From positions 64,001 to 128,000 of the IMG/VR virus record IMGVR_UViG_3300035686_000002: a stretch of 64,000 nucleotides of DNA. One strand, written 5' to 3'. Numbering within the stretch: position 1 is the stretch's first letter; each line of letters starts with the position of its first letter. The notes beneath the pieces were generated by a model, which had not been told where the DNA came from, did not search any database, and saw nothing but the letters and a program-made list of their open reading frames with translations. This document shows, piece after piece, positions 14,181 to 31,072 of this stretch. The translations under genes were made by a program, and so were the position numbers. Source of the DNA: a virus (Duplodnaviria; Caudoviricetes).

Positions 14181-14551
14181 TTTTTAGAAGGAGTGGGAGG
14201 GGTAGGAGTTTTTTCAACTTCTGACGGACGAGTAACGAAAGCAGAAACGTCCGCTGCTTCGGAGCTAGCTTCTTGTGCAATCAACTTGGTTTCTATCGGA
14301 GCAGATACCCGCGCAGTTTTCTTAGTATCTGGCGGCGCAATCACTGTAGGCTGCTCAAACAGAACTCGGATAATTCCTTGCTCTTGCCTGAGTTTAATTA
14401 GTGGATGATCTGCAACCTCTTTCCATTTGTCAATATCAACTTCGTTCTTCTTACCAGCCACTAGCTGTATCGAGCCAACAAACAAATCGCCGCTTTGTGG
14501 AACTGGACTTAGCTGTGGTAAATATTCAACAATTCCTATTATTCCGCTCAT
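14177..14551 (-). CDS. Hypothetical head-associated protein
   Basis: Lies between capsid and connector. IQLVAGKKNEVDIDKWKEV...HP motif with a low-complexity tail. Confidence 0.6.
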   Translation of the reverse strand: MSGIIGIVEYLPQLSPVPQSGDLFVGSIQLVAGKKNEVDIDKWKEVADHPLIKLRQEQGIIRVLFEQPTVIAPPDTKKTARVSAPIETKLIAQEASSEAADVSAFVTRPSEVEKTPTPPTPSKK

Positions 14552-15468
14552 TAACTTGCTAATACTCCTTCTACAACTACTGCTGACAAGCGACTAAAGA
14601 ATGTGCCACCGTTTCGTTCGTGAATCAGCACTTCCTTGGAAGTGTCGCTGTTGTGGTGCAACAACTGCTCAATCGGCTGCGGAATAAACCGTTTTACGTG
14701 GCTTGGATCTTTCTTGTAAAAGATAATCGCCGGGGTTCCCCCAAATCCAGCCTCGTCTGCCTCGCTTACGTCGTCAACGTAAGTAATTTGTGGGTTGGAC
14801 TTGCGCCACAAATCCATCAGCGTTACGTCTGAGTTCGCATTTCTAAACGTGGTATTTAGAACGGTTCGCACTCGCGAGGGGAACAGTACAGTATCAGCTT
14901 TGAAAGTTCGTCGAGTTATTTGGTCGTAAACCATGTTTGACCAAATATTGAGGTAACGCAGCATCAAGTTTGGATCTAATGTCGGATCGTCGAACTGGAT
15001 AGGACTGAGAACTTTTGGCAGCAAAGGAAATGTAAACAATCCATAGAGTCCGGCATCTGGATCGCCCAGATACGAAACGCGATTGCTTTCTCGCGCTACC
15101 ATTTCTTTTGCGCCCAAGGCTTTTTCTGCTGAAATATCAATTCCAGCAAATGTTGCCGTCCGCACTTCCTGAAAAGTGACGCGCCACGCTGCCTCAATCG
15201 ATTTAACGTTGCTGGCGTTCATGGCTTCACTCACCACCCCGACCAACGGCGGATCGTCACCGGGAGCGGAAGTTATTTTGGCTCGACCGCGATAGTCAAG
15301 CGTTACTTGGGTCAGCATCTGAGCGCCGGGGCCGCCCTCAAAAGAAGTTGGGATGTGTTGGGCAGCTTTCAATTCGGGATATTCAGCTCTTGCGACTTCA
15401 CCTAGAATATGCTCGACGGCACGTTGCAAAAGGTAAGGCCCATCCATTCGGACATCTGTTGGAGACAT
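14551..15468 (-). CDS. Major capsid protein (DUF2184/HK97-fold type)
   Basis: EYPELKA...IP, SYLGDPDAGLYGLFTFP, ADTVLFPS, IFYKKDP, ERNGG. Follows the protease and decoration genes. Confidence 0.88.
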   Translation of the reverse strand: MSPTDVRMDGPYLLQRAVEHILGEVARAEYPELKAAQHIPTSFEGGPGAQMLTQVTLDYRGRAKITSAPGDDPPLVGVVSEAMNASNVKSIEAAWRVTFQEVRTATFAGIDISAEKALGAKEMVARESNRVSYLGDPDAGLYGLFTFPLLPKVLSPIQFDDPTLDPNLMLRYLNIWSNMVYDQITRRTFKADTVLFPSRVRTVLNTTFRNANSDVTLMDLWRKSNPQITYVDDVSEADEAGFGGTPAIIFYKKDPSHVKRFIPQPIEQLLHHNSDTSKEVLIHERNGGTFFSRLSAVVVEGVLAS

Positions 15469-15491: not shown

Positions 15492-16292
15492 TTAAGCTGC
15501 TGCGGGGGCAGTAATACTGGCGTATCCGAGTTTGATTTGCGCCAAATCAGTTCCTGATGTCAAAAACTGAGCGTTTGTCAACTGCAAGTCGGCACCCGCC
15601 GCAGTTGCACCACGAAATGCTCCAATTTTTCCAGCGCCAGAATAGCGGTAAAAAACAGGAGAACTAGGATTTACTGGAGGGCCTTCAACCGCGACCCACA
15701 ATGTCCCAGCCTCGCGAACGAGCATCACGTCGTTTTTTCTATACACGTGCTTGTTAGATCCGCACGGATAAGCGTTTGTCCGAAGTCCATCGTCAGCAGT
15801 TACCCCGACGAACTTGTGATTTGCATCTGGCGCACCTAACCTGACTTCTCGCTCGCTATCGGTAGCAAGGCGAACTACGGCAAGACCTAGTTCAATATCA
15901 GTGGACGCAACAACTGGTGTTGTAACGGCTTGAGTTAAGGCTGCACTACCCGGTATCACGGTCAAAGTTTGTCCCGGAAGTCCAGTAATAGTTATGGCGC
16001 TAGCGCCTCCTGTGGCAGCATCAACACCCGCAAAGGATTGATTGATGGCAGCAACTAAAGCATCCCGGAGCAAAGTGACGTTCCCTCCGGTTGCAGGCGT
16101 CGTCGTAGTGACTGTGACGCCGTTAATAGTTACTGCGTATTCCGTGCTGGGCGTAAAAGTAGCGATAGTAAGCGTTACAACTCCAGCAACGTCTAACGCT
16201 GTATTGAAGTAGCTTCGATCGTACTTAGGAGCCAAGTCTGCTGGCATACCGGGGTAGCCGATCGGAAAAGTTGAAGCAAAAGAAGTTTGCAT
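15492..16292 (-). CDS. Capsid decoration/cement protein with inserted Ig-like domain
   Basis: GYPGMPAD N-terminus, IELGLAVV, FVGV, VREAGTLWV...PVFYR...GAF. Lies between protease and capsid. Confidence 0.78.
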   Translation of the reverse strand: MQTSFASTFPIGYPGMPADLAPKYDRSYFNTALDVAGVVTLTIATFTPSTEYAVTINGVTVTTTTPATGGNVTLLRDALVAAINQSFAGVDAATGGASAITITGLPGQTLTVIPGSAALTQAVTTPVVASTDIELGLAVVRLATDSEREVRLGAPDANHKFVGVTADDGLRTNAYPCGSNKHVYRKNDVMLVREAGTLWVAVEGPPVNPSSPVFYRYSGAGKIGAFRGATAAGADLQLTNAQFLTSGTDLAQIKLGYASITAPAAA

Positions 16293-16296
16293 TAAT

Positions 16297-17745
16297 TTAA
16301 TTACTGTTTTTCCAAGCGTTTTGTACTTTAGCTTTTTGTTCTTGCTGAATTTTTTCTAGCGAGTCAACTGGGTAGTTGCTCGAATCAGCTTTTGCTTGAT
16401 CGATCCATTGACCCACAGACGCACGCTCAGGACTCGGCTTGGCGATTCCCTCGGCAACCATGACGCTAAATGCTGTCCGGATCACATCGTCTGGGTTGCT
16501 TGCCGATTGAACCAACGAATCAAGATTGAGTGCAGGGCGAGAATTTTGCAGTGCAAGCCGCATGATTCCAACACTATCAAGCGTATAGTCTGGTTCTTTT
16601 ATGGCAATGTTTGGCAAAAACGGCTCTGCCTCTTTCCAAGTTTTGATCCAAGACTCTCGCTGACTTATGATTGCTTTTTCTTGAGCTTCGCGAGTTAATT
16701 GCAGTTCAGCATCTAACCGTTGAACTTTAGCTTTGGCAGTGTCAAGTTCGCGACGGAAAGCAGCATTATCTCTCTCCGCACTGTCAAGACGACCTTCTAA
16801 TTCAGTAATCTGAATCTGTTTTTCCTTAACTCGGCGATTAGTTGCGCTGTCACTATCCGATCGGCTTAAATCGCTTTCAACAGACAAAGTATCTTCGATT
16901 GCTGTAGCTCGACCTTGCCAATAAGCAGCAGAGTCTTTAGTTTCGGTTAACTCTTCCTCTTTCTCTGTCCACATTGCTTGCATTTCAATTACAAGAGAAA
17001 TTAAATCTTCTTTGCTTTTTCCACGCAATTCTTCTTCATCGTGCATTTTCATATCAGTTTCACCTCCTACTTTTATGTGCAGATTATCAAGCCGAACCTC
17101 TGAATCGTTCCAAGCAGGTTCGGCAAGCTGCCAGCATTTTTCTAAAATTTCTGAATCTTTATGAAGTTCAGGGGTTGACAATCCGGGATAAAGACGAAGA
17201 TCTGCACCGCCCCGTGCTTTAACAGTTAGAGCTATATGATTGCCTTTGATATTCCGCTGAATCGCGTCGTATCGCTGACCCTCCCAAACTCCCGGAGTCC
17301 AGTCAAGTTTAGTCAGATAGCCGACAGACAATTCAATCCGCCCACCATCTAGCGCATTTTTAACAGCGTGTTGGTCAATTATCTTGACTTTTGTACTGAC
17401 AAACCCGCCGTCATAATTAACCGAGCCGTTCCAACCGACCGCAAAATGCCGAGCGTTGGAAGAGTCCAGCATTGCCGGGGGATGTTCGATAGAGATTGGC
17501 AAATCACATAACGTTTTTAAGGAGTCGCGGTTTGCGACTTCCTCCGGTGGACGAAACTCTCGACGAACGGTGCCGTCAGGGTTGGGGTATTCTTGAATCC
17601 CGATGCGGGCAATTTTGGCATTGGCAACCAAATACCCTTCGGGCGTCAGTTGCCATTCACCTAGCTTGCCGGAATCGGCTCGATATTCCCAATCGATTTT
17701 TTCAAGAACTTCAGGCATTTGAACTGCACAGCAAGGTGCTTGCAA
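16297..17745 (-). CDS. DUF2213 prohead protease/scaffold (likely start at 17718)
   Basis: TPEGYL...ARIGIQEY...FRPPEEV...PISIEHP...ELSVGY...YDAIQRNIKGNHIAL...ARGG, followed by a C-terminal coiled coil. Confidence 0.92.
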   Translation of the reverse strand: MQAPCCAVQMPEVLEKIDWEYRADSGKLGEWQLTPEGYLVANAKIARIGIQEYPNPDGTVRREFRPPEEVANRDSLKTLCDLPISIEHPPAMLDSSNARHFAVGWNGSVNYDGGFVSTKVKIIDQHAVKNALDGGRIELSVGYLTKLDWTPGVWEGQRYDAIQRNIKGNHIALTVKARGGADLRLYPGLSTPELHKDSEILEKCWQLAEPAWNDSEVRLDNLHIKVGGETDMKMHDEEELRGKSKEDLISLVIEMQAMWTEKEEELTETKDSAAYWQGRATAIEDTLSVESDLSRSDSDSATNRRVKEKQIQITELEGRLDSAERDNAAFRRELDTAKAKVQRLDAELQLTREAQEKAIISQRESWIKTWKEAEPFLPNIAIKEPDYTLDSVGIMRLALQNSRPALNLDSLVQSASNPDDVIRTAFSVMVAEGIAKPSPERASVGQWIDQAKADSSNYPVDSLEKIQQEQKAKVQNAWKNSN

Positions 17746-19058: not shown

Positions 19059-22000
19059 ATGGCTAACGGAATTAATGTAATTTTTTCCATTACAGACTTG
19101 GCAAGTTCTGCGCTTGCTAACGTTCGATCAGAAATGTCAAGAGTTGCTAGCGGTATTACTCAAGCGAGTACCGCTCTTTTCTTTTGGAGCGAAGGCTTCA
19201 ATCAAATTAAAGCGGCGTCTAGCCAATTTTACAATGCGTTTATCGGTCAAAACGAAAAAATGCGCCAGCAAATACTGGCAACTCAATCTAGTCTTGCCGC
19301 CGTTCAAGATGTCTATATTAATGGGGTTAAATCTGTTGATCCCACCGAAACAATTCAAGCTTTTGAAGCTCCTATTAGAAAATCGTTAAATCAGATTGCA
19401 ATTGAATCGCTTGATCTTGTAGGGGTAACGTCAGGACAATTGACTGACTTATTGCAAATTGCATTAACTAACGCCACAAAAATAACTAATCAGTCAAAAG
19501 ATTTTGCCGATCCCATTAAAGCAGCAGAAAGGTTAACGCTGTCGTTTGCAGGTGCTTTTGGTGCAATGCAGATTCCCTTATTTCAAGCTAGACAAGAAAT
19601 TAACAGTATCTTGTCAGGGACAATCGACATGAATTCTCGACTGGCAAAAGGGCTGAGCATTACCAATGAGCAAGTCAGAGCATGGGGTTCGCAAGGTGTA
19701 TTAGTTGACAAACTGGTAAGTAAACTTCAACCGTTTGTTGCAGGTAATGCGTTAGCTGCTCGGAGTGTTAGTGGTATTACTTCAAATATTCAAGAAATAT
19801 TTGAAATTACAACTAGGCTTGCTGGAGAAAGTATTACAGGCTTATTTGTGGATGGGCTGGATGTTATTTATCAATACATGAAGAACATCCAACCACAAAT
19901 TCAAGCTACTTTAAATGGAGTTACGGCGTTTATCAGTAATTCAGTAAAACAAATTGTTGAAATAATTAGTCCATTTTTACCAACACTTGCGGTGTTTCGG
20001 GATGCAATTCTCAGTATAGGCGGGTCTATCGGTGAAATTATTGGTGGTTCTGTTCAGACACTGCTCACTGTATTGGCAACCGTTGCACCAATAATAGCAC
20101 CCATTTTTGATCTGCTTGTTTCAATTATCAAAGTTGTAGCTGAATTATTAAGCGATCCAGTAATTCAGCAAATGGTGCAGATGGCGCTAATAATTACAGC
20201 AATAATAGGGCCTCTAAGTACCATTGCAACATTAGTCGCAACTATCTCCGGCTTTTTTGCCTCTGGAGGCGGTCTAGTTGGATTTTTTACGCTGCTATCT
20301 ACCGTCGCACCAGGGTTGGTTGCGTCACTTGGTGCATTAGGTTCGGCGCTTGCGTCAATTGCGGGATTTGGCGGAGCTGCCGGGGCTATTGCAACATCAG
20401 GTTCTATGATGACAGTCTTGGGTGGTGCAATAACCAGTGTTGCCGTTGCACTAGGGCCATTGGCTTTAGCTATTGCAGCGGTTGCAGCAGCAGCAAAATT
20501 GATGCAAAGTGCTAAAGTTGATGACGCTAGACAAGCAATCGAAGCAGTTGGAGAAAGAAGTGATGTTACTGCAAGCGGGGCAAACAATACAACATTACAG
20601 TTGCGTCAACTTCGCGACAGAGAAATCATTCAAGGCGAATTAACCGATAAACAGAAGGCTGATAAAGAAAAACTAACAAACCAAGCTCGTAATTATGCAA
20701 CCCAACTAGAAGCAGAGATTACTGCTGCCAAAGAAATTAATACCGCTGGTGATGAGTCACTAGAAAATGCCAAAGCTGCTTTAATAGCCAGCAACGAACA
20801 AACGTTAAAAGGACTTGGCAAATTCACTTCTGGACTGTCAACGTCTGCCAAGCCATTAACAGAACTAGGTGGAACGTTTACACAGTTGAGCGCAAAAGTT
20901 GCAGCCTTTGAAGCTCAAATAAAAGCGGCTAACTCCGATCCTGAGTTTCAAACTGCGACTAAAGGAATAACCGAATTAATAACTAAACAAGTTCAATTAG
21001 GTCAAATAAGTGCTGAACAAGGTCAAAAACGTTTGCAAACGATACTGAATGACTCTCGCGTAGAACTTGCAGGCAGAGAAGCTGCTCAAAAAGCTATTGA
21101 TCAAATACGAGAAATTGCGACAAAAAAAGAATTAGAGCGCTCTCAACAAACTCAATCTGAAATTGAAAAGATGCAGAACGAGGGGCGCGTCGGAGAGGTC
21201 AAAGCAGAGCAAATGTTAACTGAGCAAAAGCTCAAAGAAATCAGTATTCGAGCAGACTCTCAAAAAGAAGCACATTCTGAGCGAATGCGTCAAATCCAAA
21301 CAGAAATGAATACTGCACTAGGAGGTATAGACAAAGAAATTGCTGATAAACAGGCAACACTTGACAAGTTGAAAGTAGCAAAAGCACCTGAAGTTCAAAT
21401 TGTCCAAGCTCAGCGAGATTTAGATTCGAGTAAATCTCGACGTGCTGACAAACAATCAGAGTTTGTAGTCATTCAAGTTGAAGAAAACCGCAAAAATGCT
21501 ATTGAAATCGCAAAAATGGATGCCGAGCGCTCAAAACTAGAAAAGCAGCAGCGCGACATCCGCAAGCGCGAAGCCTTAAAAGACTTTGACGAACGCCAAA
21601 AAATTAACGATTCAGCTCGTGAACAAGGTTTAAAAGACAATCAACAGGCAGCGCAAGAATCTATTCAAATTGCTCAAGATAGGGCAAAACTAGAACTAGC
21701 TCAAGTCAAAAATAGTACAGCTAAGCTTGAAGCTGAAGCCAAGAAACAGGGCAAAACGGTCAAACAATACGACAAGGAAGCTTGGGAAGCTTTACAAGTA
21801 CAGCAAGCTGAGGCTCTTCAAAAGTTAGCAACAGCCAGAAAAGACGGTTTTGAAAAACGTTTGTCAGATATTAAGCAAGACGCTCAGGAAGCTACCGCGC
21901 TAGTTGATGCAGCACAAGCCAAGAACGATATTGACAACCAAGCAGCAGCGACTCAAACAGCAGCAATCGCAACAAAAAGTATCAACACCCAAATTGCACT

Positions 22001-25000
22001 AATCAATAAGGAAATTGATGCAAACCAGGGAAACAAAGAGCGACTAGAAGAGTTAAATGCAAAACGGGCAGGACTAGAGAAAGATTTAACCGAAGTGCAG
22101 AAGAAACAGCTACAACAGCGATTGTCGGACTTACAACAGGATGCTGACGAACGAGTAGCCGTAGTCAAAGCCGCAAATGCTGTAGGTGACATTAACAACC
22201 AAGAAGCTGCAAAACGAACTGCAATGATCGAGTCCAACAGTTCAAAGTCTCAACTGCAAATCATCCGAAATAGAATTGCTGAGGTGCAAGCTGCTGATAA
22301 AGCACGGGGTAAAGTTAGCATTGAATTATTGGAAGAATTACGAAAACAGGAAGCAGACACTCAGGTCAAGATAACTGAAATAGCAAAAAAGGAAATGGAA
22401 TCACGCTTAGCTGACCTGAAAGAGGATGTAGCTGAGCGCACAGCAGTTATCAAAGCATCACAGGCAACAGGCGCAATAGATAACCAGGCAGCAGCAATTC
22501 AAACGGCAGAATTTGAACGTACTGGCGCAGCCCAACGATTAGAGATTGTCCGATCGCGGATTGAGCAAGTTGCAGCCGAAGGCAAAAAGTCAGGCAAACT
22601 CAACATTGAACTGATGGAATCTCTGAGAAAACAGGAAGCAGAGATCGAGGTTGAGACGACTGAGATTGCCAAGAAAGAAATGGATGCCCGCTTATCAGAC
22701 TTGCAACAGGACGTTGAAGAAAGAGTTTCAGTAATTCAATCAACTAATGCGTTGGGAACCCAAGACAACCAAGAAACGGCAATTGCCACGTCTCAAATTC
22801 AACAAAAAAGTGCCAACGATCAATTAAAAATAGTTAGAGAAAGAATTAATGCGGTTATCACGGAGGGACAAAAATCAGGAAAACTAAACATAGAGCTTTT
22901 AGAAGAACTACGAAAAAGAGAAGCTGATATTCAGGTTAAAATTACAGAAACTCAAAAACAGGAGTTACAAAAACGGCTAGCAGATTTGCAACAAGACGCT
23001 GAAGAGCGAACGGCAGTTGTAACAGCAGAGAATGCAACAGGAATTTTAGACAATCAAAAATCTGCTATAAAAACGTCGCAAATTCAACAAAACAGTTTAA
23101 ATGCTCAACTCAGTTTAATTCGTCAGCGAATAGCAACTGTTAGTCCTGCCAATAAAGAGTTGTTGGAGGAACTACTAAAACAGGAAGCAGATATCCAAAT
23201 CAAAATTACAGAAGTTCAAAAACAAGAATTTCAGAAACGTTTAAGTGACTTGCAGCAAGACTCTCAAGAACGTATTGCTGTTGTGGAAGCAGCGACAGCG
23301 ATGGGAAGAAAAGACAATCAGGAATCAGCGATAGAAATACAAAATATTCAGCGACAGGGTGTTGTCGCTCAATTAAGGTTAGTGCGAGAACGTCTTTCTG
23401 CCACTAGCTCGCTAAACAAAGAGTTACGAGAAGAGCTAAAAGCGCAAGAAGCCAAGTTACAGACAGAACTAACAGAGATTCAAGAACAAGGCTTTCAAAA
23501 ACGTCTGTCTGATTTACAGCAGGACGGGGAAGAACGGCTGGCTATTATTACTGCTAACGGTATTAGGGGGCTAGCCGACAACCAAGAAACGGCGTTAAAG
23601 TCAGCCGCTATTCAGGAAGAATCAGCACAAAAACAGTTGGCACTAATCCAAGAACGATTGACTAGGGTTAGCGAATCATCGACTGAACTCCGAGAAAAAC
23701 TGCTAAAACAGGAAGCTGATACCCAAGCTAAAATCGCTGAAATTCGCAAACAGGCTTTTGACAAACGACTGGCGGATATTGAGCAAGACGGACAAGAACA
23801 ACAGACAATTTTAGAAGGACAGTTGGCACAGGGTCAGACAACAGAAGCCGAGTATGCCCAAAATCGTTATGACCAATCGCTTCAATCTTTAGATAATCAG
23901 TTAGTGCTTGTTCGGGAACGCCGATCGCAAATATCGGCAACCGACATTGAGGGACAAGAGGCGCTGGCAACTCAAGAAGCCTCTCTGCAAAAACGCCGAC
24001 AAGATGCGCTTTCCCAGTTTTTAGAAACTCAATTGAGTTTACTAGATCGGGAAAATAAAAAGGCAACTGAACTGTTGGAACAGTCAGAACTCGATCGCAA
24101 GTTGATTGTTAAACAGGCGGCGCTTTCGGGAAGTGCTGACAAAGATGCTGCCGCAACCGCTGAAATCAAAGCAACACAACGCCGAATCCAACAGGAAATC
24201 GCATTAGAAGAACAGAAAAATGCAACGCTGCGATCGCTCCCGGCATTTTCCGATCCAGCAAAAGAAGCCGAGCGACAATCTAGAATTCGGGCATCGGTTA
24301 AACGGACAACTGAACTCAGACTTCAATTACTAGATGAAGAAAAAAGGGCTTTTGATTTGCTGGTTGACCGCCAAATAAAAGCTATCCAGAATCAGGCTCG
24401 GGAACAAGAGCTAGCTTCTGATGTGCAAGTGCGGGCGATCGAGCAACAGAGTAAGCAGTATGATTTGCTAAGTCGATCGCTTGAAAACCAAAACAAACTC
24501 CTGCAATCCCGTGCCAGCTTAGCAAATGCTTTAAACGGGTACATTCAGGGCGAATATAAAATCTTGCAGGACAGCGCGGGTTCCGAAAGTGAACGCAAGC
24601 GACTGATCAAGGAAGCCGCAGATGCCCAACTTGTAGCAATGCAGCAGCAGCAAACCGTCGCTCAAAAAAACCTCGACATCGAAATCAAGCAAGCTGAAAT
24701 TGCTCAAAAACGTGCAGAATTTGAAGCAGAAATTGCAGAGATAAAAGCCCGAGCCGGGTCTGCCAAAGCCGATGCCGAAGTTCTTAAAGCTGAAGCAACA
24801 TTGCAAAAAGTACAGCGCGACCCCAACGCTAGCAATGCTGATGTTGAAGCCGCCCGATTGGATGTTGCTGCCGCCCGTGCTGGAGCCGAAGCTGCTGTTG
24901 CCGAAATTGCTGGGGCGATCGCGAACAAAGAAATGGTCGGGCGAAATGCAGAAGTTCTGAAGGCACAGAACGACCTGAAACGGGAAACACAATCGATTGA

Positions 25001-25592
25001 ACAAGTTACTCAAGGACGAGCAGCACAGGCTCAGGCGATCGAGGCAATCGTAGACGAAAACGAGAAAAAACTGAGGCAGCGCCAACTAGCCGGACGATTG
25101 ACACCGGAAGAATCAGAACGGCTGGCGCGGATTCAACGAGAAAACCAGCAGCGCGAAGCTACTAGGCGGCAGAATGAAATCGAACGGGACACACTGCGGG
25201 GAGTCGTTACGCCTAATGGGGTGCGACGGGGAATTCAAGCTGCTGGTGCGAGATCGAGTTCGCTGTTGCAGGCAATAGAGCAAACAGCGGCAACACCGCC
25301 GAAAGTACCGGAATTAAAAAACCTGGTGGCTCAAATGAACGCGCAGCGACAACAGATTTCAGCTATCAAGCCGGAGGTTAACCCGCTGATCCGATTACAA
25401 GAAGAAAGCACAAAATACCAGAAAGAGATACTTGGAGTTCTCAAACAACTCAACGGAAAACCGACACCCGCGCCGACAACTCCTGTAACTAATAATTTCA
25501 ACACCAACGCCCAAGTCGGTTTGTCCGAATCTCAAATGCTGGGAGTTTTTGGTCAGGTAAGCCAACAGGTGTCGCGGATGGTGGGGCGCTAG
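19059..25592 (+). CDS. Tape measure protein
   Basis: 2177 aa. N-terminus INVIFSITDLASSAL, hydrophobic A/G-rich segment, long coiled coil with at least 8 RLxDxxQD repeats. Confidence 0.9.
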   Translation: MANGINVIFSITDLASSALANVRSEMSRVASGITQASTALFFWSEGFNQIKAASSQFYNAFIGQNEKMRQQILATQSSLAAVQDVYINGVKSVDPTETIQAFEAPIRKSLNQIAIESLDLVGVTSGQLTDLLQIALTNATKITNQSKDFADPIKAAERLTLSFAGAFGAMQIPLFQARQEINSILSGTIDMNSRLAKGLSITNEQVRAWGSQGVLVDKLVSKLQPFVAGNALAARSVSGITSNIQEIFEITTRLAGESITGLFVDGLDVIYQYMKNIQPQIQATLNGVTAFISNSVKQIVEIISPFLPTLAVFRDAILSIGGSIGEIIGGSVQTLLTVLATVAPIIAPIFDLLVSIIKVVAELLSDPVIQQMVQMALIITAIIGPLSTIATLVATISGFFASGGGLVGFFTLLSTVAPGLVASLGALGSALASIAGFGGAAGAIATSGSMMTVLGGAITSVAVALGPLALAIAAVAAAAKLMQSAKVDDARQAIEAVGERSDVTASGANNTTLQLRQLRDREIIQGELTDKQKADKEKLTNQARNYATQLEAEITAAKEINTAGDESLENAKAALIASNEQTLKGLGKFTSGLSTSAKPLTELGGTFTQLSAKVAAFEAQIKAANSDPEFQTATKGITELITKQVQLGQISAEQGQKRLQTILNDSRVELAGREAAQKAIDQIREIATKKELERSQQTQSEIEKMQNEGRVGEVKAEQMLTEQKLKEISIRADSQKEAHSERMRQIQTEMNTALGGIDKEIADKQATLDKLKVAKAPEVQIVQAQRDLDSSKSRRADKQSEFVVIQVEENRKNAIEIAKMDAERSKLEKQQRDIRKREALKDFDERQKINDSAREQGLKDNQQAAQESIQIAQDRAKLELAQVKNSTAKLEAEAKKQGKTVKQYDKEAWEALQVQQAEALQKLATARKDGFEKRLSDIKQDAQEATALVDAAQAKNDIDNQAAATQTAAIATKSINTQIALINKEIDANQGNKERLEELNAKRAGLEKDLTEVQKKQLQQRLSDLQQDADERVAVVKAANAVGDINNQEAAKRTAMIESNSSKSQLQIIRNRIAEVQAADKARGKVSIELLEELRKQEADTQVKITEIAKKEMESRLADLKEDVAERTAVIKASQATGAIDNQAAAIQTAEFERTGAAQRLEIVRSRIEQVAAEGKKSGKLNIELMESLRKQEAEIEVETTEIAKKEMDARLSDLQQDVEERVSVIQSTNALGTQDNQETAIATSQIQQKSANDQLKIVRERINAVITEGQKSGKLNIELLEELRKREADIQVKITETQKQELQKRLADLQQDAEERTAVVTAENATGILDNQKSAIKTSQIQQNSLNAQLSLIRQRIATVSPANKELLEELLKQEADIQIKITEVQKQEFQKRLSDLQQDSQERIAVVEAATAMGRKDNQESAIEIQNIQRQGVVAQLRLVRERLSATSSLNKELREELKAQEAKLQTELTEIQEQGFQKRLSDLQQDGEERLAIITANGIRGLADNQETALKSAAIQEESAQKQLALIQERLTRVSESSTELREKLLKQEADTQAKIAEIRKQAFDKRLADIEQDGQEQQTILEGQLAQGQTTEAEYAQNRYDQSLQSLDNQLVLVRERRSQISATDIEGQEALATQEASLQKRRQDALSQFLETQLSLLDRENKKATELLEQSELDRKLIVKQAALSGSADKDAAATAEIKATQRRIQQEIALEEQKNATLRSLPAFSDPAKEAERQSRIRASVKRTTELRLQLLDEEKRAFDLLVDRQIKAIQNQAREQELASDVQVRAIEQQSKQYDLLSRSLENQNKLLQSRASLANALNGYIQGEYKILQDSAGSESERKRLIKEAADAQLVAMQQQQTVAQKNLDIEIKQAEIAQKRAEFEAEIAEIKARAGSAKADAEVLKAEATLQKVQRDPNASNADVEAARLDVAAARAGAEAAVAEIAGAIANKEMVGRNAEVLKAQNDLKRETQSIEQVTQGRAAQAQAIEAIVDENEKKLRQRQLAGRLTPEESERLARIQRENQQREATRRQNEIERDTLRGVVTPNGVRRGIQAAGARSSSLLQAIEQTAATPPKVPELKNLVAQMNAQRQQISAIKPEVNPLIRLQEESTKYQKEILGVLKQLNGKPTPAPTTPVTNNFNTNAQVGLSESQMLGVFGQVSQQVSRMVGR

Positions 25593-27394: not shown

Positions 27395-27979
27395 ATGCAA
27401 TTACTCAACACCAAATTCAACCAAATCGCTACAGCAATCGAAGCGACTAACGCCCAGATTGCAGCCTTACAAGCCAAGCTTTCGGAACTTCAAGAACATC
27501 AACAGCAACTACTCTCAGTCGAGCAAGCTTGCCAGTCCGCACTCGCCCAAGTTGGCACTGCACTTTCAATGCTCAACCACGTAGACCCCGCCGAAATCCC
27601 TACATTCAAGGCAGCGGTTGACGCACAATTTGGAACCGACGCGATTGGATTCTTGGAACCCGCCACACCTGCACCAGAGGAAACAGTCGAACCAATCGAA
27701 CCAGAACCGACACCACCGGAATCATCAACCACAGCAGAAATTAAGTCAGCGATTGAAGTAGAAGCGACTGTCACAGATACACCCACCACTGACGAGTTGA
27801 TTGAGTCAACACCCACACCATCGGCAAAAATTGAATTACTACTCGGTAAAATGTCTCTCGCCGACATCCGGAAGCTCGCCAAAAACAAAAAGGTAAACGC
27901 ACGGGGAAACCTGCTTACTATCGCAGCGAGGTTAAAAGCAATCGTCACAGAGTCCGATATCTGGGATGCTACGACATAA
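27395..27979 (+). CDS. Coiled-coil protein with C-terminal Rho_N/SAP-like helix-extension-helix
   Basis: N-terminal heptads, P/E/T-rich linker, MSLADIRKLAKNKKVNARG...IAARL. Confidence 0.65.
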   Translation: MQLLNTKFNQIATAIEATNAQIAALQAKLSELQEHQQQLLSVEQACQSALAQVGTALSMLNHVDPAEIPTFKAAVDAQFGTDAIGFLEPATPAPEETVEPIEPEPTPPESSTTAEIKSAIEVEATVTDTPTTDELIESTPTPSAKIELLLGKMSLADIRKLAKNKKVNARGNLLTIAARLKAIVTESDIWDATT

Positions 27980-28077: not shown

Positions 28078-28368
28078 ATGACAGAAATACCTAATGTTTA
28101 TTTTAGTGACAATCTATTACAAATGGTCGGCAAAAAGTTTCTTAAAGAAATAAGTACAGACGATGCCACGAGAATCTTAGAAATCTTAAAGAAACACGGA
28201 GATGAAAATTTAATCGACAAATGGGTCTCTGTCAATATAGTTGCTGGAACAGCAAGAGGACGTGCTGCAATGAATCAATTAGAAAAAGAGTATCGAGAAA
28301 AAGTTAACAGGAAGGGGAAGACGAGCGGCGATTGCCTTGAGCCTCCCGGCGATCATGACACAAACTGA
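28078..28368 (+). CDS. Hypothetical protein (inserted moron)
   Basis: AGGA RBS. Flanked by a duplicated 3' end of the upstream gene. Confidence 0.6.
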   Translation: MTEIPNVYFSDNLLQMVGKKFLKEISTDDATRILEILKKHGDENLIDKWVSVNIVAGTARGRAAMNQLEKEYREKVNRKGKTSGDCLEPPGDHDTN

Positions 28369-28530
28369 TATTTGGAAAGCTACGACATAGACTTAGTGAC
28401 TAAAATGAGAAAAATACGGTAGAAACACAGCACTTTGTTTCTACCGCATTTTTACAGCAGGTTTAGCAATATTCTCAAACTTCAACTTGCTTAGTGACAA
28501 GCCTGAGAAACTCGGATCTTCAGATTTAAA

Positions 28531-28720
28531 GCGAGAGCTGATCGATATGGGCTTATAGATGAGTCTGTCACTCAGTTTTTTATATTCTATATACTTTTTG
28601 ATTGACAGACTCATCTATTGTTTCTTCGATTATATCTACGTCTTGACTGTAGAGACTGTTTAATTTTTAAAAAAGAAATCTAACCAATCTCAACAACTGG
28701 AATGGATAAATTGCTCTCGC
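28531..28720 (+). repeat. Dispersed element, copy 3
   Basis: GCGAGAG...ATAGATGAGTCTGTCACTCA..TGATTGACAGACTCATCTAT...CTCTCGC. Confidence 0.9.
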
Positions 28721-28801
28721 ATCTAAAGCCTGCTGATTGAAAATTTGACATGAATGGTTTATATTTATTAAACTCCAAGAACTCAAAGAAAACAGAAAAA
28801 C

Positions 28802-29137
28802 ATGGCTAACATAACAACAGGGGAAACTAAATTTCAGAAAAGAACTATCGCCCTTGCCTGCGCTGAACAACGGGTGACAGTAGAATTAACAATAGAACGA
28901 AAAGCCCTCAATCATGAATATTTGGATTTTGTCGAAGCTTGCAAAGAAAAGTCAAGGGCTAAACCAGGAAAAGTAATTATAGCTGGTGACGACGGTGTTA
29001 GTGTCATTACAGTGAACGGTCAAACTTGGTATATGAGAGTTGATCGAGTTAAAAGACTTTGGTTTGCCTCTAATGGCTTAGTTGAAGCCAAACCGAAAAC
29101 CACTAGACGCGCTCTAGTTCAATCTTTACTCATTTAA
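28802..29137 (+). CDS. Hypothetical protein
   Basis: Preceded by TTGACA(28745)-18 bp-TAAACT and followed by a terminator. Confidence 0.65.
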   Translation: MANITTGETKFQKRTIALACAEQRVTVELTIERKALNHEYLDFVEACKEKSRAKPGKVIIAGDDGVSVITVNGQTWYMRVDRVKRLWFASNGLVEAKPKTTRRALVQSLLI

Positions 29138-29169: not shown

Positions 29170-29192
29170 GCCCCCAAGCCGGGGGTTTTTAT
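29170..29192 (+). terminator. Rho-independent terminator
   Basis: CCCCC-aagcc-GGGGG-TTTTT. Confidence 0.65.
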
Positions 29193-29333
29193 TGCAATAC
29201 TGTTTAGTGGCTAAAGCATTAGACTGAGAACAAACAAAGCGCCAAGTTTCTGTTCAAAAAGTATTACACAATATTTCGCGATAAAATAACCCAATTGTGT
29301 TAATATGTTAGTATTGCTTTTCTGACAAAAAAC

Positions 29334-29552
29334 GTGAATTTTTTTTTAAAGCTGTTCCAGCCTAAAACATCTAATCCTGACAAATGCACAAAAGAATCAA
29401 CAGACCCAACAGAATCAAAAGAATCAGTTGAAAATAATTCGGATCTCAATGCTGATTCAACTATTTCTCACTATTCTGTCAGCCCTGGTGCAGAATCAAT
29501 TAGTCAAGTAACACTTGATTACCGAGGTCGCGCTAAATTGCACGGACAATAA
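29334..29552 (+). CDS. Small protein ending in a major-capsid-identical peptide
   Basis: PGAESISQVTLDYRGRAK versus capsid PGAQMLTQVTLDYRGRAK. Confidence 0.65.
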   Translation: MNFFLKLFQPKTSNPDKCTKESTDPTESKESVENNSDLNADSTISHYSVSPGAESISQVTLDYRGRAKLHGQ

Positions 29553-29693: not shown

Positions 29694-30164
29694 CTATTTT
29701 ATTTTTCTCTGCATTCGTCCAAAAGGAAAACATGAGTCTAGGATTGCTTCTAGTGGCTCGCAATCAGAGACGGGAATATATTTTGGGAAACGACGATGTA
29801 AGATAGCTTCATTTTCACCTGTTTCATCCCAAGACCTTTGTTCTACAAAAACAATTTTGTCTAGCCGATCAGATTCTAAATTGAAAAACCTAACAGCAGC
29901 ATTGCTAGCGCAAAAACCAAGTGCGTCAATAATATCTCCGACATTATATTTTGTCCACGATAAGTCTACTGTGGGTATTTTGTCATACAAGTAAACCACA
30001 GGACTTGTATAATTCCACATCCGCTGTTCAACAAAAACAATCTTGTATGACTGTTCTATCTCGAAATCGTAAAAATTAACAATGTCAGTACGATTACATT
30101 TAATAAGTGTATTGATTAATTGTTCGACATTTAAACCTGTAGTATATTGTTTGATTACTGACAT
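29694..30164 (-). CDS. Hypothetical protein with two internal repeats; paralog of 55999..56316
   Basis: xNV(E/G)xLI(N/D)xL...V(N/R)F(Y/F)...KIVFVEQR occurs twice. Confidence 0.65.
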   Translation of the reverse strand: MSVIKQYTTGLNVEQLINTLIKCNRTDIVNFYDFEIEQSYKIVFVEQRMWNYTSPVVYLYDKIPTVDLSWTKYNVGDIIDALGFCASNAAVRFFNLESDRLDKIVFVEQRSWDETGENEAILHRRFPKYIPVSDCEPLEAILDSCFPFGRMQRKIK

Positions 30165-30531: not shown

Positions 30532-30847
30532 TCTATTGTTGTCCTAAGTTTTTATATTTTTAAGAAGAGTCAGTCAATACCTATTACATTATAACTATTT
30601 TAAATTAAAAATAATCAAAATCCACTAAATTTATAAATAATAAACCCCTACACTCCTAATTTTGGTCACTAATAGGTTTAATGTCAAGACATCTACGGGC
30701 ATCTTTAAAGCGCAAGTGTGGGCGTGCTTAATTGAGTTAGCTAACAAGTTTTGCGGATGACAGAGTGGTGAACCGAGAGTAATTATACATGAAAACTTCA
30801 GCTTGCTTGCTAACAAGTCTAGACGATTTCGGTTTTTAAATTTAAAA

Positions 30848-31038
30848 GCGAGAAGTATTTGGGCTGTTATAATAGATGAGCTTGTCACTCAGTTTTCTAT
30901 ATTCTATAATCTTTTTGCGTGACAAACTCATCTATTATACCTTCGACTATATCTACGCTTTGGTTGTAGGGTTTGCTTTAGTTTTGCACAAGAAGATCAC
31001 ACCAGTCTCAGCAAGTAGAATAACTAATTTGCTCTCGC
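30848..31038 (+). repeat. Dispersed element, copy 4
   Basis: GCGAGA...ATAGATGAGCTTGTCACTCA..TGCGTGACAAACTCATCTAT...CTCTCGC. Confidence 0.9.
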
Positions 31039-31072
31039 CTCAAAACCTGATTGTCACACAAATGTTGAAACG

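Follow-up and report, generated by a model that had tools for sequence, protein, structure and literature searches.

In HK97-fold shells, the strands of the E-loop are classic sites of strand addition by other chains. Phage T4 illustrates how capsid protein sequence can be put to further use: the vertex protein gp24 is the product of a capsid-derived extra gene that has kept the whole HK97 fold and co-assembles into shells, and in the major capsid protein gp23 the Gol peptide, a short capsid stretch, is sufficient to engage the host protease Lit. Capsid protein is a well-documented trigger of bacterial defences, of which at least one relies on the E-loop. In the staphylococcal Thoeris system, ThsB1 binds capsid monomers and needs an intact E-loop for this binding, and activation needs the distant P-loop (PMC12578639). 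On the phage side, DSAD1 from SPbeta-like phages is reported to mimic the tail-tube trigger and to occupy the trigger pocket of DSR2 without activating it (PMC10973363), and Ccm of SaPIbov5 is described as a capsid homologue that redirects assembly (PMC8569155). Searches of the literature, which included truncated capsid paralogues and decoys, revealed neither a direct precedent nor a published factor, whether for anti-defence or for assembly, that consists of a copied capsid strand.

We describe here a phage mini-protein with a C-terminal peptide that is homologous to a single strand of the major capsid protein. Because its design recurs in a second phage that has diverged from the first, the mini-protein looks, from its sequence, like a capsid mimic of putative function rather than gene debris. 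It would be comparable with DSAD1 in being a phage accessory protein that imitates, as proposed here, a virion protein sensed by host immunity. Unlike DSAD1, which is reported as a structural mimic and not described as a copied piece, it carries a homologous copy of 18–19 capsid residues; moreover, the target of DSAD1 is DSR2, whereas the mini-protein is foldless and its target is only proposed. With the Thoeris proteins ThsB1/ThsB2 the locus would share the use of the E-loop of an HK97-fold capsid monomer as an immune docking site, but the host, the phage and the capsid family are different, the cited study describes no E-loop mimic encoded by a phage, and the sensor assumed here is putative. 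Like Ccm, the mini-gene is an additional gene of major-capsid origin that is employed outside the standard role of the parent protein, although Ccm keeps the complete HK97 fold and co-assembles, whereas the mini-protein keeps one strand only. The Gol peptide lies within the capsid gene itself and activates a defence, in contrast to the separate gene and the proposed inhibition in the present case. Finally, the locus resembles the mosaic scars of large phage genomes in its repeat-bounded accessory block, its absence from the nearest relative and the presence of other partial paralogies, but differs from them in having an intact open reading frame (ORF) with modular conservation across about 50% divergence.

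The stretch of DNA analysed (hereafter designated the window; 64,000 nucleotides) comprises bases 64,001–128,000 of a 151,712-bp IMG/VR record, 93% complete, of a cyanophage-like virus; the positions of the features discussed are collected in Table 1. The major capsid protein encoded in its head module gave matches to PF09950 (E 8.9e-24; 84.6 bits versus a cut-off of 26.8) and phrog_264 (E 3.6e-40), and matches to the PDB profiles of the T1, FCWL1 and Pam3 capsids at E values of 1e-34 to 1e-39. Profile and structural similarity together place it in the HK97-fold PF09950 class, and its solved relatives include XM1 besides T1, FCWL1 and cyanophage Pam3. The nearest characterised capsids, such as those of Synechococcus phage S-CBS4 and Aphanizomenon phage CL131, are 24–28% identical to it. 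The mini-gene belongs to a 2.1-kb block that is made up of four ORFan genes and is flanked on either side by a copy of a dispersed palindromic element. Its neighbours in the block gave no informative family matches, and no PADLOC-type or other annotated defence partner was found in the block.

Table 1 Features of the mini-gene locus and of the capsid-related genes (positions are those of the window unless marked as genome positions).
Feature	Position	Strand	Basis and remarks
DUF2213 protease-scaffold	16297..17745	-	head module
PF22758 cement protein	15492..16292	-	head module
Major capsid protein gene, 305 aa, PF09950/DUF2184 class	14551..15468	-	profiles, fold
Major capsid gene segment matching the mini-protein, residues 47-64	15277..15330	-	ungapped alignment
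Left copy of dispersed palindromic element (~190-215 bp)	28512..28727	+	direct repeats D1, D2
Intrinsic terminator of upstream gene 28802..29137	29170..29195	+	terminator scan
Mini-protein gene	29334..29552	+	GTG start, 72 aa plus stop; ORF list, codon usage, homologue P0029
Conserved N-terminal module, residues 1-26 (FFxxLFQxKTSxP...TKEST)	29334..29411	+	16/26 identical to P0029
Polar/acidic disordered linker	29412..29483	+	2/17 aligned residues common to P0029, in-frame indels
Capsid-derived peptide PGAESISQVTLDYRGRAKL, putative copy of ascending E-loop strand	29484..29540	+	profile score
Terminator-like hairpin (7-bp stem, 9-nt loop, then T-run), overlapping the stop codon	29540..29575	+	sequence, RNA fold z = -2.0
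Right copy of dispersed palindromic element	30829..31045	+	direct repeats D1, D2; 72-74% identical to left copy
Half-capsid gene P0003, 151 aa (~150)	genome 47319..47774	+	outside the window, 16.2 kb before its start

Residues 51–68 of the mini-protein (PGAESISQVTLDYRGRAK), which are followed by LHGQ at the C-terminus, align without gaps to residues 47–64 of the resident capsid protein (PGAQMLTQVTLDYRGRAK). A preliminary description of this DNA had counted 14 identical residues in this match, nine of them with synonymous codons, and codon-by-codon comparison reproduced both counts: 14 of the 18 residues are identical, and the same 18 codons contain 9 synonymous differences and 4 non-synonymous codons, with nucleotide differences at 18 of 54 positions. 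Estimates by the Nei-Gojobori method were 0.86 (pS) and 0.15 (pN) across the 18 codons, and 0.69 and 0, respectively, for the 11-codon exact core, QVTLDYRGRAK, in which mini-protein and resident capsid are identical. The match is far above chance, because a capsid-family HMM detects the mini-ORF peptide at E 3.6e-8 among the three local frames, and a six-frame search of the whole genome finds it at E 3.3e-5. The mini-protein is, however, not itself a capsid of the PF09950 class: its homology is limited to profile positions 34–71, and its AlphaFold model (pTM 0.13) is foldless apart from a short helix at residues 3–7, the pLDDT being below 50 for residues 26–37. It had no match in Pfam, PHROG, NCBIfam or PADLOC. 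Thus, it is a derivative of one capsid strand, not a member of the HK97-fold family.

The AlphaFold model of the resident capsid protein (mean pLDDT, 78.8) consists, in its N-terminal half, of an N-arm helix (residues 9–29), a low-confidence hairpin (about 40–88), a strand (89–98) and the spine helix (99–134), and a Foldseek search with it retrieved the T1, FCWL1, Pam3 and E217 capsids and encapsulins; the TM scores to solved capsids were 0.69–0.71. Since the elements of the model follow the HK97 order of N-arm, E-loop and P-domain, residues 47–64 are consistent with the ascending E-loop strand up to its tip. The preliminary description had assigned the peptide to the E-loop region from its position, and the predicted structure and the HK97-fold matches agree with this assignment, the hairpin itself being modelled at low confidence. 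Residues 58–63 are invariant among the eight closest capsids. As a separate observation on the capsid protein, the feet of the E-loop (residues 50–57 and 80–87) are among the four most variable 8-residue windows in eight capsids that are at least 77% identical, with mean entropies of 0.78 and 1.09, respectively, versus 0.35 overall, and they adjoin the invariant DYRGRA; variability of this kind would fit an exposed surface under diversifying pressure.

The origin and the edges of the capsid-derived piece were analyzed with a capsid-family profile made from 17 capsids that are 23–93% identical to the resident one. Over 18 residues the mini-protein scored 65.1, as compared with 63.3 for the resident capsid segment and 39–71 for the family members, whereas the 15 residues upstream of the peptide scored −15.8 versus 34–57 in capsids. 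Capsid homology showed no extension upstream of the island, the anchored downstream extension was nil, and a frameshift-tolerant local alignment downstream was not significant, 12–21 of 100 shuffles reaching the observed score. Because the upstream score is negative and the downstream extensions are non-significant, the piece is an intact island of 18–19 codons with sharp edges and not the tip of a decayed gene. The residues E, S, I and S that distinguish the mini-protein from the resident capsid fit the family consensus better than the resident QMLT, similar variants (AETIT, ADSIT and AETIS) occurring elsewhere in the capsid family, and the peptide is identical at 15 of 18 residues to the capsids of P0010, P0012 and G001, versus 14 of 18 for its own capsid. 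The closest capsid genes reached have 16–19 nucleotide differences in 54–57 bases from the mini-ORF segment. Degenerate-codon pattern scans for the core peptide in viral, metagenome and genome collections gave full-length capsids or chance matches only, and no donor capsid gene closer than 17 nucleotide differences in 57 was present in these collections. As the variant residues are typical of the family and no capsid gene is close in DNA, the piece evidently came long ago from a related or ancestral capsid gene and not from a recent duplication of the resident gene. The claim of the preliminary description that this is not a recent DNA duplication is thereby borne out, since the synonymous sites are saturated and the E, S, I and S residues are nearer to the consensus. 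It had further considered a case in which the DNA is nearly identical to the capsid gene of another phage and the ORF is not conserved; comparison with other capsid genes revealed none that is close (17–19 differences in 57), and one other phage was found to have kept the ORF.

That other phage is represented by P0029, a full-length homologue of 65 aa located on a 1,012-bp Logan contig, which was compared at the protein level only. A search for intact homologues had been envisaged in the preliminary description, and a HMMER scan of 1.84 billion representative proteins found this one alone, at E 1.7e-6; pairwise BLASTP gave 49% identity with E 8e-17. The two proteins start at the same place, and both end in PGAESISQ[V/I]TL[D/E]Y..RAKL, followed by 2–3 residues and the stop (15 of 21 residues identical). 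The end modules are identical at 31 of 47 positions, whereas the linker is identical at 2 of 17 (Fisher p 1.5e-4), and all indels in the alignment are of whole residues, the reading frame being kept. In the C-terminal peptide, 15 of 19 residues are kept; P0029 has Ser at the capsid-invariant Gly61, so that its peptide is an imperfect capsid copy. In a simulation of neutral drift to 60% identity, 17% of the copies remained open, a figure in which indels are not yet counted. The mini-ORF thus behaves as a conserved gene, with an intact diverged homologue, in-frame indels and uneven conservation, as seen in a single homologue at the protein level.

The preliminary description had concluded from the synonymous codons that the peptide is under selection. 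The synonymous pattern alone is insufficient for this conclusion, because the same pattern is expected of a fragment from any other functional capsid gene. The conclusion gains its footing from P0029, which keeps the peptide while the linker has diverged, and from this one homologue, at the protein level, we infer selection on the peptide. Attention had also been drawn to NADS in the linker, a motif of the prohead-protease type ([R/K/N]-x-D-[A/S/G]); it is indeed present in the mini-protein but is not kept in P0029, where it has no counterpart. AESIS and RAKL are common to the two mini-proteins and occur in none of the 17 capsids, which indicates, at the level of sequence, one capture before the lineages split and then retention of the peptide. 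The known distribution is narrow. A word-based protein search with the mini-protein found only itself; searches of viral contigs with the mini-protein (P0001), with P0029, with the alignment of the pair and with P0003 gave no match, nor did a distant blastn search of 50,697 phage records with the accessory block. In G001, the nearest relative available, whose capsid is 88% identical and whose record is 92% complete, the mini-gene and the whole block are missing, and there is no homologue at the DNA or profile level. A KFFQPKT look-alike at genome position 141,646, located in the leader of another gene and in a different frame from that gene, was judged to be due to chance.

With respect to its coding character, the mini-ORF is probably a real gene. 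Its codon-usage score (0.245 per codon, versus 0.254 ± 0.110 for the long genes of the phage) was reached by none of 191 out-of-frame or antisense ORFs, and the score of the part not derived from the capsid was reached by 0.7% of composition-matched open shuffles, evidence that is inflated by a 9-nt tandem repeat within the mini-ORF, which renders some of the codons non-independent. The hairpin at the stop codon is unique in the window and, together with the strong terminator of the upstream gene, makes the mini-gene unit look self-contained, as judged from these signals. The strong upstream terminator also implies that transcription of the mini-gene requires a separate promoter; a scan of positions 29190–29333 revealed no consensus sigma-70-type promoter. 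No Shine-Dalgarno sequence was found before the GTG start, and only about 31% of the long ORFs of the phage have one. The locus occurs in one DNA run, from a biocrust metagenome that may be its source, and no RNA run is listed with it. The 9-nt repeat just mentioned (positions 29389–29431; four units of CAA[A/C]AGA[A/C][T/C]C, spanning the module/linker boundary) encodes KES/TDP/TES/KES, and AGAATCA recurs a fourth time within the codons of the capsid-like peptide; the repeat is a likely source of the length variation of the linker.

The phage has two separate capsid-derived accessory genes, the mini-gene and the half-capsid gene P0003, and G001 has neither. The P0003 product shows 59% identity to residues 152–304 of the capsid protein, with family-specific deletions, and lacks the N-arm, E-loop and spine helix. 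It is conserved in at least six variants from NCBI, JGI, ENA and Logan sources, which are 77–100% identical and have the same start, length and internal deletions. To judge from these sequences, P0003 is a real family of truncated capsid paralogues.

Our overall reading, held tentatively and somewhat short of even confidence, is that the mini-gene is a real small accessory gene of a narrow phage lineage and that its product is an E-loop strand mimic competing for a partner. About 20 capsid codons, encoding the ascending strand of the HK97-fold E-loop and ending at the hairpin tip, would have been acquired in a single capture, before at least two phages diverged from their ancestor, and placed after an N-terminal amphipathic helix of unrelated origin and an acidic, disordered linker. 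The resulting foldless linear-motif protein would present the E-loop strand in free form at the C-terminus, and it would compete with the capsid protein for the binding partner of this strand. That the peptide has been kept for mimicry is, in our estimate, an evenly balanced proposition. The most likely partner would be a host immune sensor of unassembled capsid, in which case the mini-protein would be a decoy or competitive inhibitor, and the next most likely a capsid assembly component; both the partner and the direction of the effect are speculative. In ThsB1, docking (on the E-loop) is separable from activation (on the P-loop), so that a ligand consisting of an E-loop only could bind without activating. 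A peptide that binds the sensor might, on the other hand, activate it instead of blocking it. By analogy with ThsB1 and DSAD1, an immune decoy is conceivable, if on the unlikely side. A fuller version, in which the foldless decoy soaks up or blocks a sensor of capsid monomers before capsid accumulates and forms with P0003 a two-part capsid decoy kit, is a rather doubtful one.

Two other accounts of the mini-protein were weighed against this E-loop mimicry, of which the less eventful is a recombination scar: a fragment of a related phage's capsid gene would have entered a hyperplastic region by illegitimate recombination, leaving a frame that is open by chance and a functionless peptide. The genome is indeed rich in partial internal paralogies and fragments, and the block lies between dispersed-repeat copies and is absent from G001; however, P0029 keeps the entire ORF, with its start, its end and both modules, at about 50% identity and with in-frame indels. 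The synonymous-only pattern is what any piece of a functional capsid gene is expected to show, but the codon usage is gene-like outside the capsid piece as well, and a dedicated terminator stands at the stop of the mini-ORF. A weak collinear match of positions 29731–29781 to capsid residues of about 124–142 could hint at a longer, decayed copy, whereas the non-significance of the upstream and downstream extensions of homology leaves no decayed gene around the island. The main reason for keeping a scar under consideration is that a single homologue is known, no near-length homologue having been found by word-based search or by pattern scans of viral, metagenome and genome collections. On balance, we regard a scar as unlikely.

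A role in assembly or in the virion, which we also consider improbable, would have the C-terminal strand dock by beta-strand addition on the lattice, the cement protein, the N-arm of a neighbour or the scaffold-protease; the mini-protein would then time or modulate the phage's own head assembly, be a minor head component, or poison the assembly of co-infecting relatives. The identity of the 11-residue core to the resident capsid is in keeping with such docking, although a peptide identical to its own capsid would poison the phage's own assembly too. Genes for a PF22758 cement protein and a DUF2213 protease-scaffold adjoin the capsid gene, but the mini-gene is in an accessory block on the strand opposite to the head module, the end of which (17745) is more than 11 kb distant, and P0029 does not keep the NADS protease site. 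Redirection of assembly by a capsid homologue is known, SaPIbov5 Ccm being an example (PMC8569155); nevertheless, the absence of the mini-gene from G001, with its 88%-identical capsid, argues against its being needed for assembling this capsid type. Far less credible still is an element acting as nucleic acid, that is, a mini-CRISPR spacer against a rival's capsid gene, an antisense regulator of the capsid mRNA or a retroelement repeat pair. A related capsid piece of about 55 nt does resemble a competitor-directed spacer, and the mini-ORF lies on the genome strand opposite to that of the capsid gene, but the homologue conserves protein, including the parts not derived from the capsid. Taken singly, a mini-CRISPR array was rejected because no direct repeats flank the segment and the hairpin downstream of it has no second copy in the window; an antisense RNA, because a mismatch at every third base leaves no perfect stretch longer than 8 nt, which is of no use for pairing; and a diversity-generating retroelement, because the differences (including T/C, C/T, A/G, A/C and C/A at third codon positions) are not adenine-specific. 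No Rfam match was obtained.

Were the decoy reading true, the mini-protein would be the first anti-defence protein made by copying a part of the sensed virion protein itself, and with a role in assembly it would be a trans-acting regulator of E-loop contacts. On a minimal reading, new phage genes can arise by the capture of about 20 codons of a structural gene. The mini-protein is a small, easily synthesised candidate for capsid mimicry and a possible bait for a filamentous-cyanobacterial sensor.

Partial internal paralogies and short fragments are numerous genome-wide. Part of a 288-aa ORF (genome 40134–40997) shows 60% identity to residues 1316–1421 of the 2177-aa protein encoded at window positions 19059..25592, and the C-terminus of the ORF that ends at 27979 has a look-alike in a 31-residue fragment at window positions 28283–28387. 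A relative with 35% identity to the 111-aa product of the neighbour gene 28802..29137 is located at genome positions 16825–17340, and the two contig ends (genome 2–649 and 149878–151146) encode 91%-identical 211-aa stretches. Downstream of the mini-gene, the minus-strand ORF 29694–30164 encodes a 156-aa ORFan with an internal duplication (KIVFVEQR[M/S]W twice) and a faint PADLOC match to Csx19 (E 0.0056). Its 3' end is overlapped by the plus-strand sequence ESRIASSGSQSETGIY (29731–29781; frame +1 relative to the mini-ORF), which weakly resembles the capsid stretch ESNRIAYLGDP.AGLY and sits near the collinear distance from the island, with an offset of about 10 nt; the resemblance is suggestive only, as 12–21 of 100 shuffles reach its score. 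Upstream of the mini-gene, a 27-nt inverted repeat with 78% complementarity (28793–28819 and 29298–29324), which may be due to chance, brackets the gene 28802..29137 together with its terminator; one arm lies over the start codon of that gene and the other just before the start of the mini-ORF.
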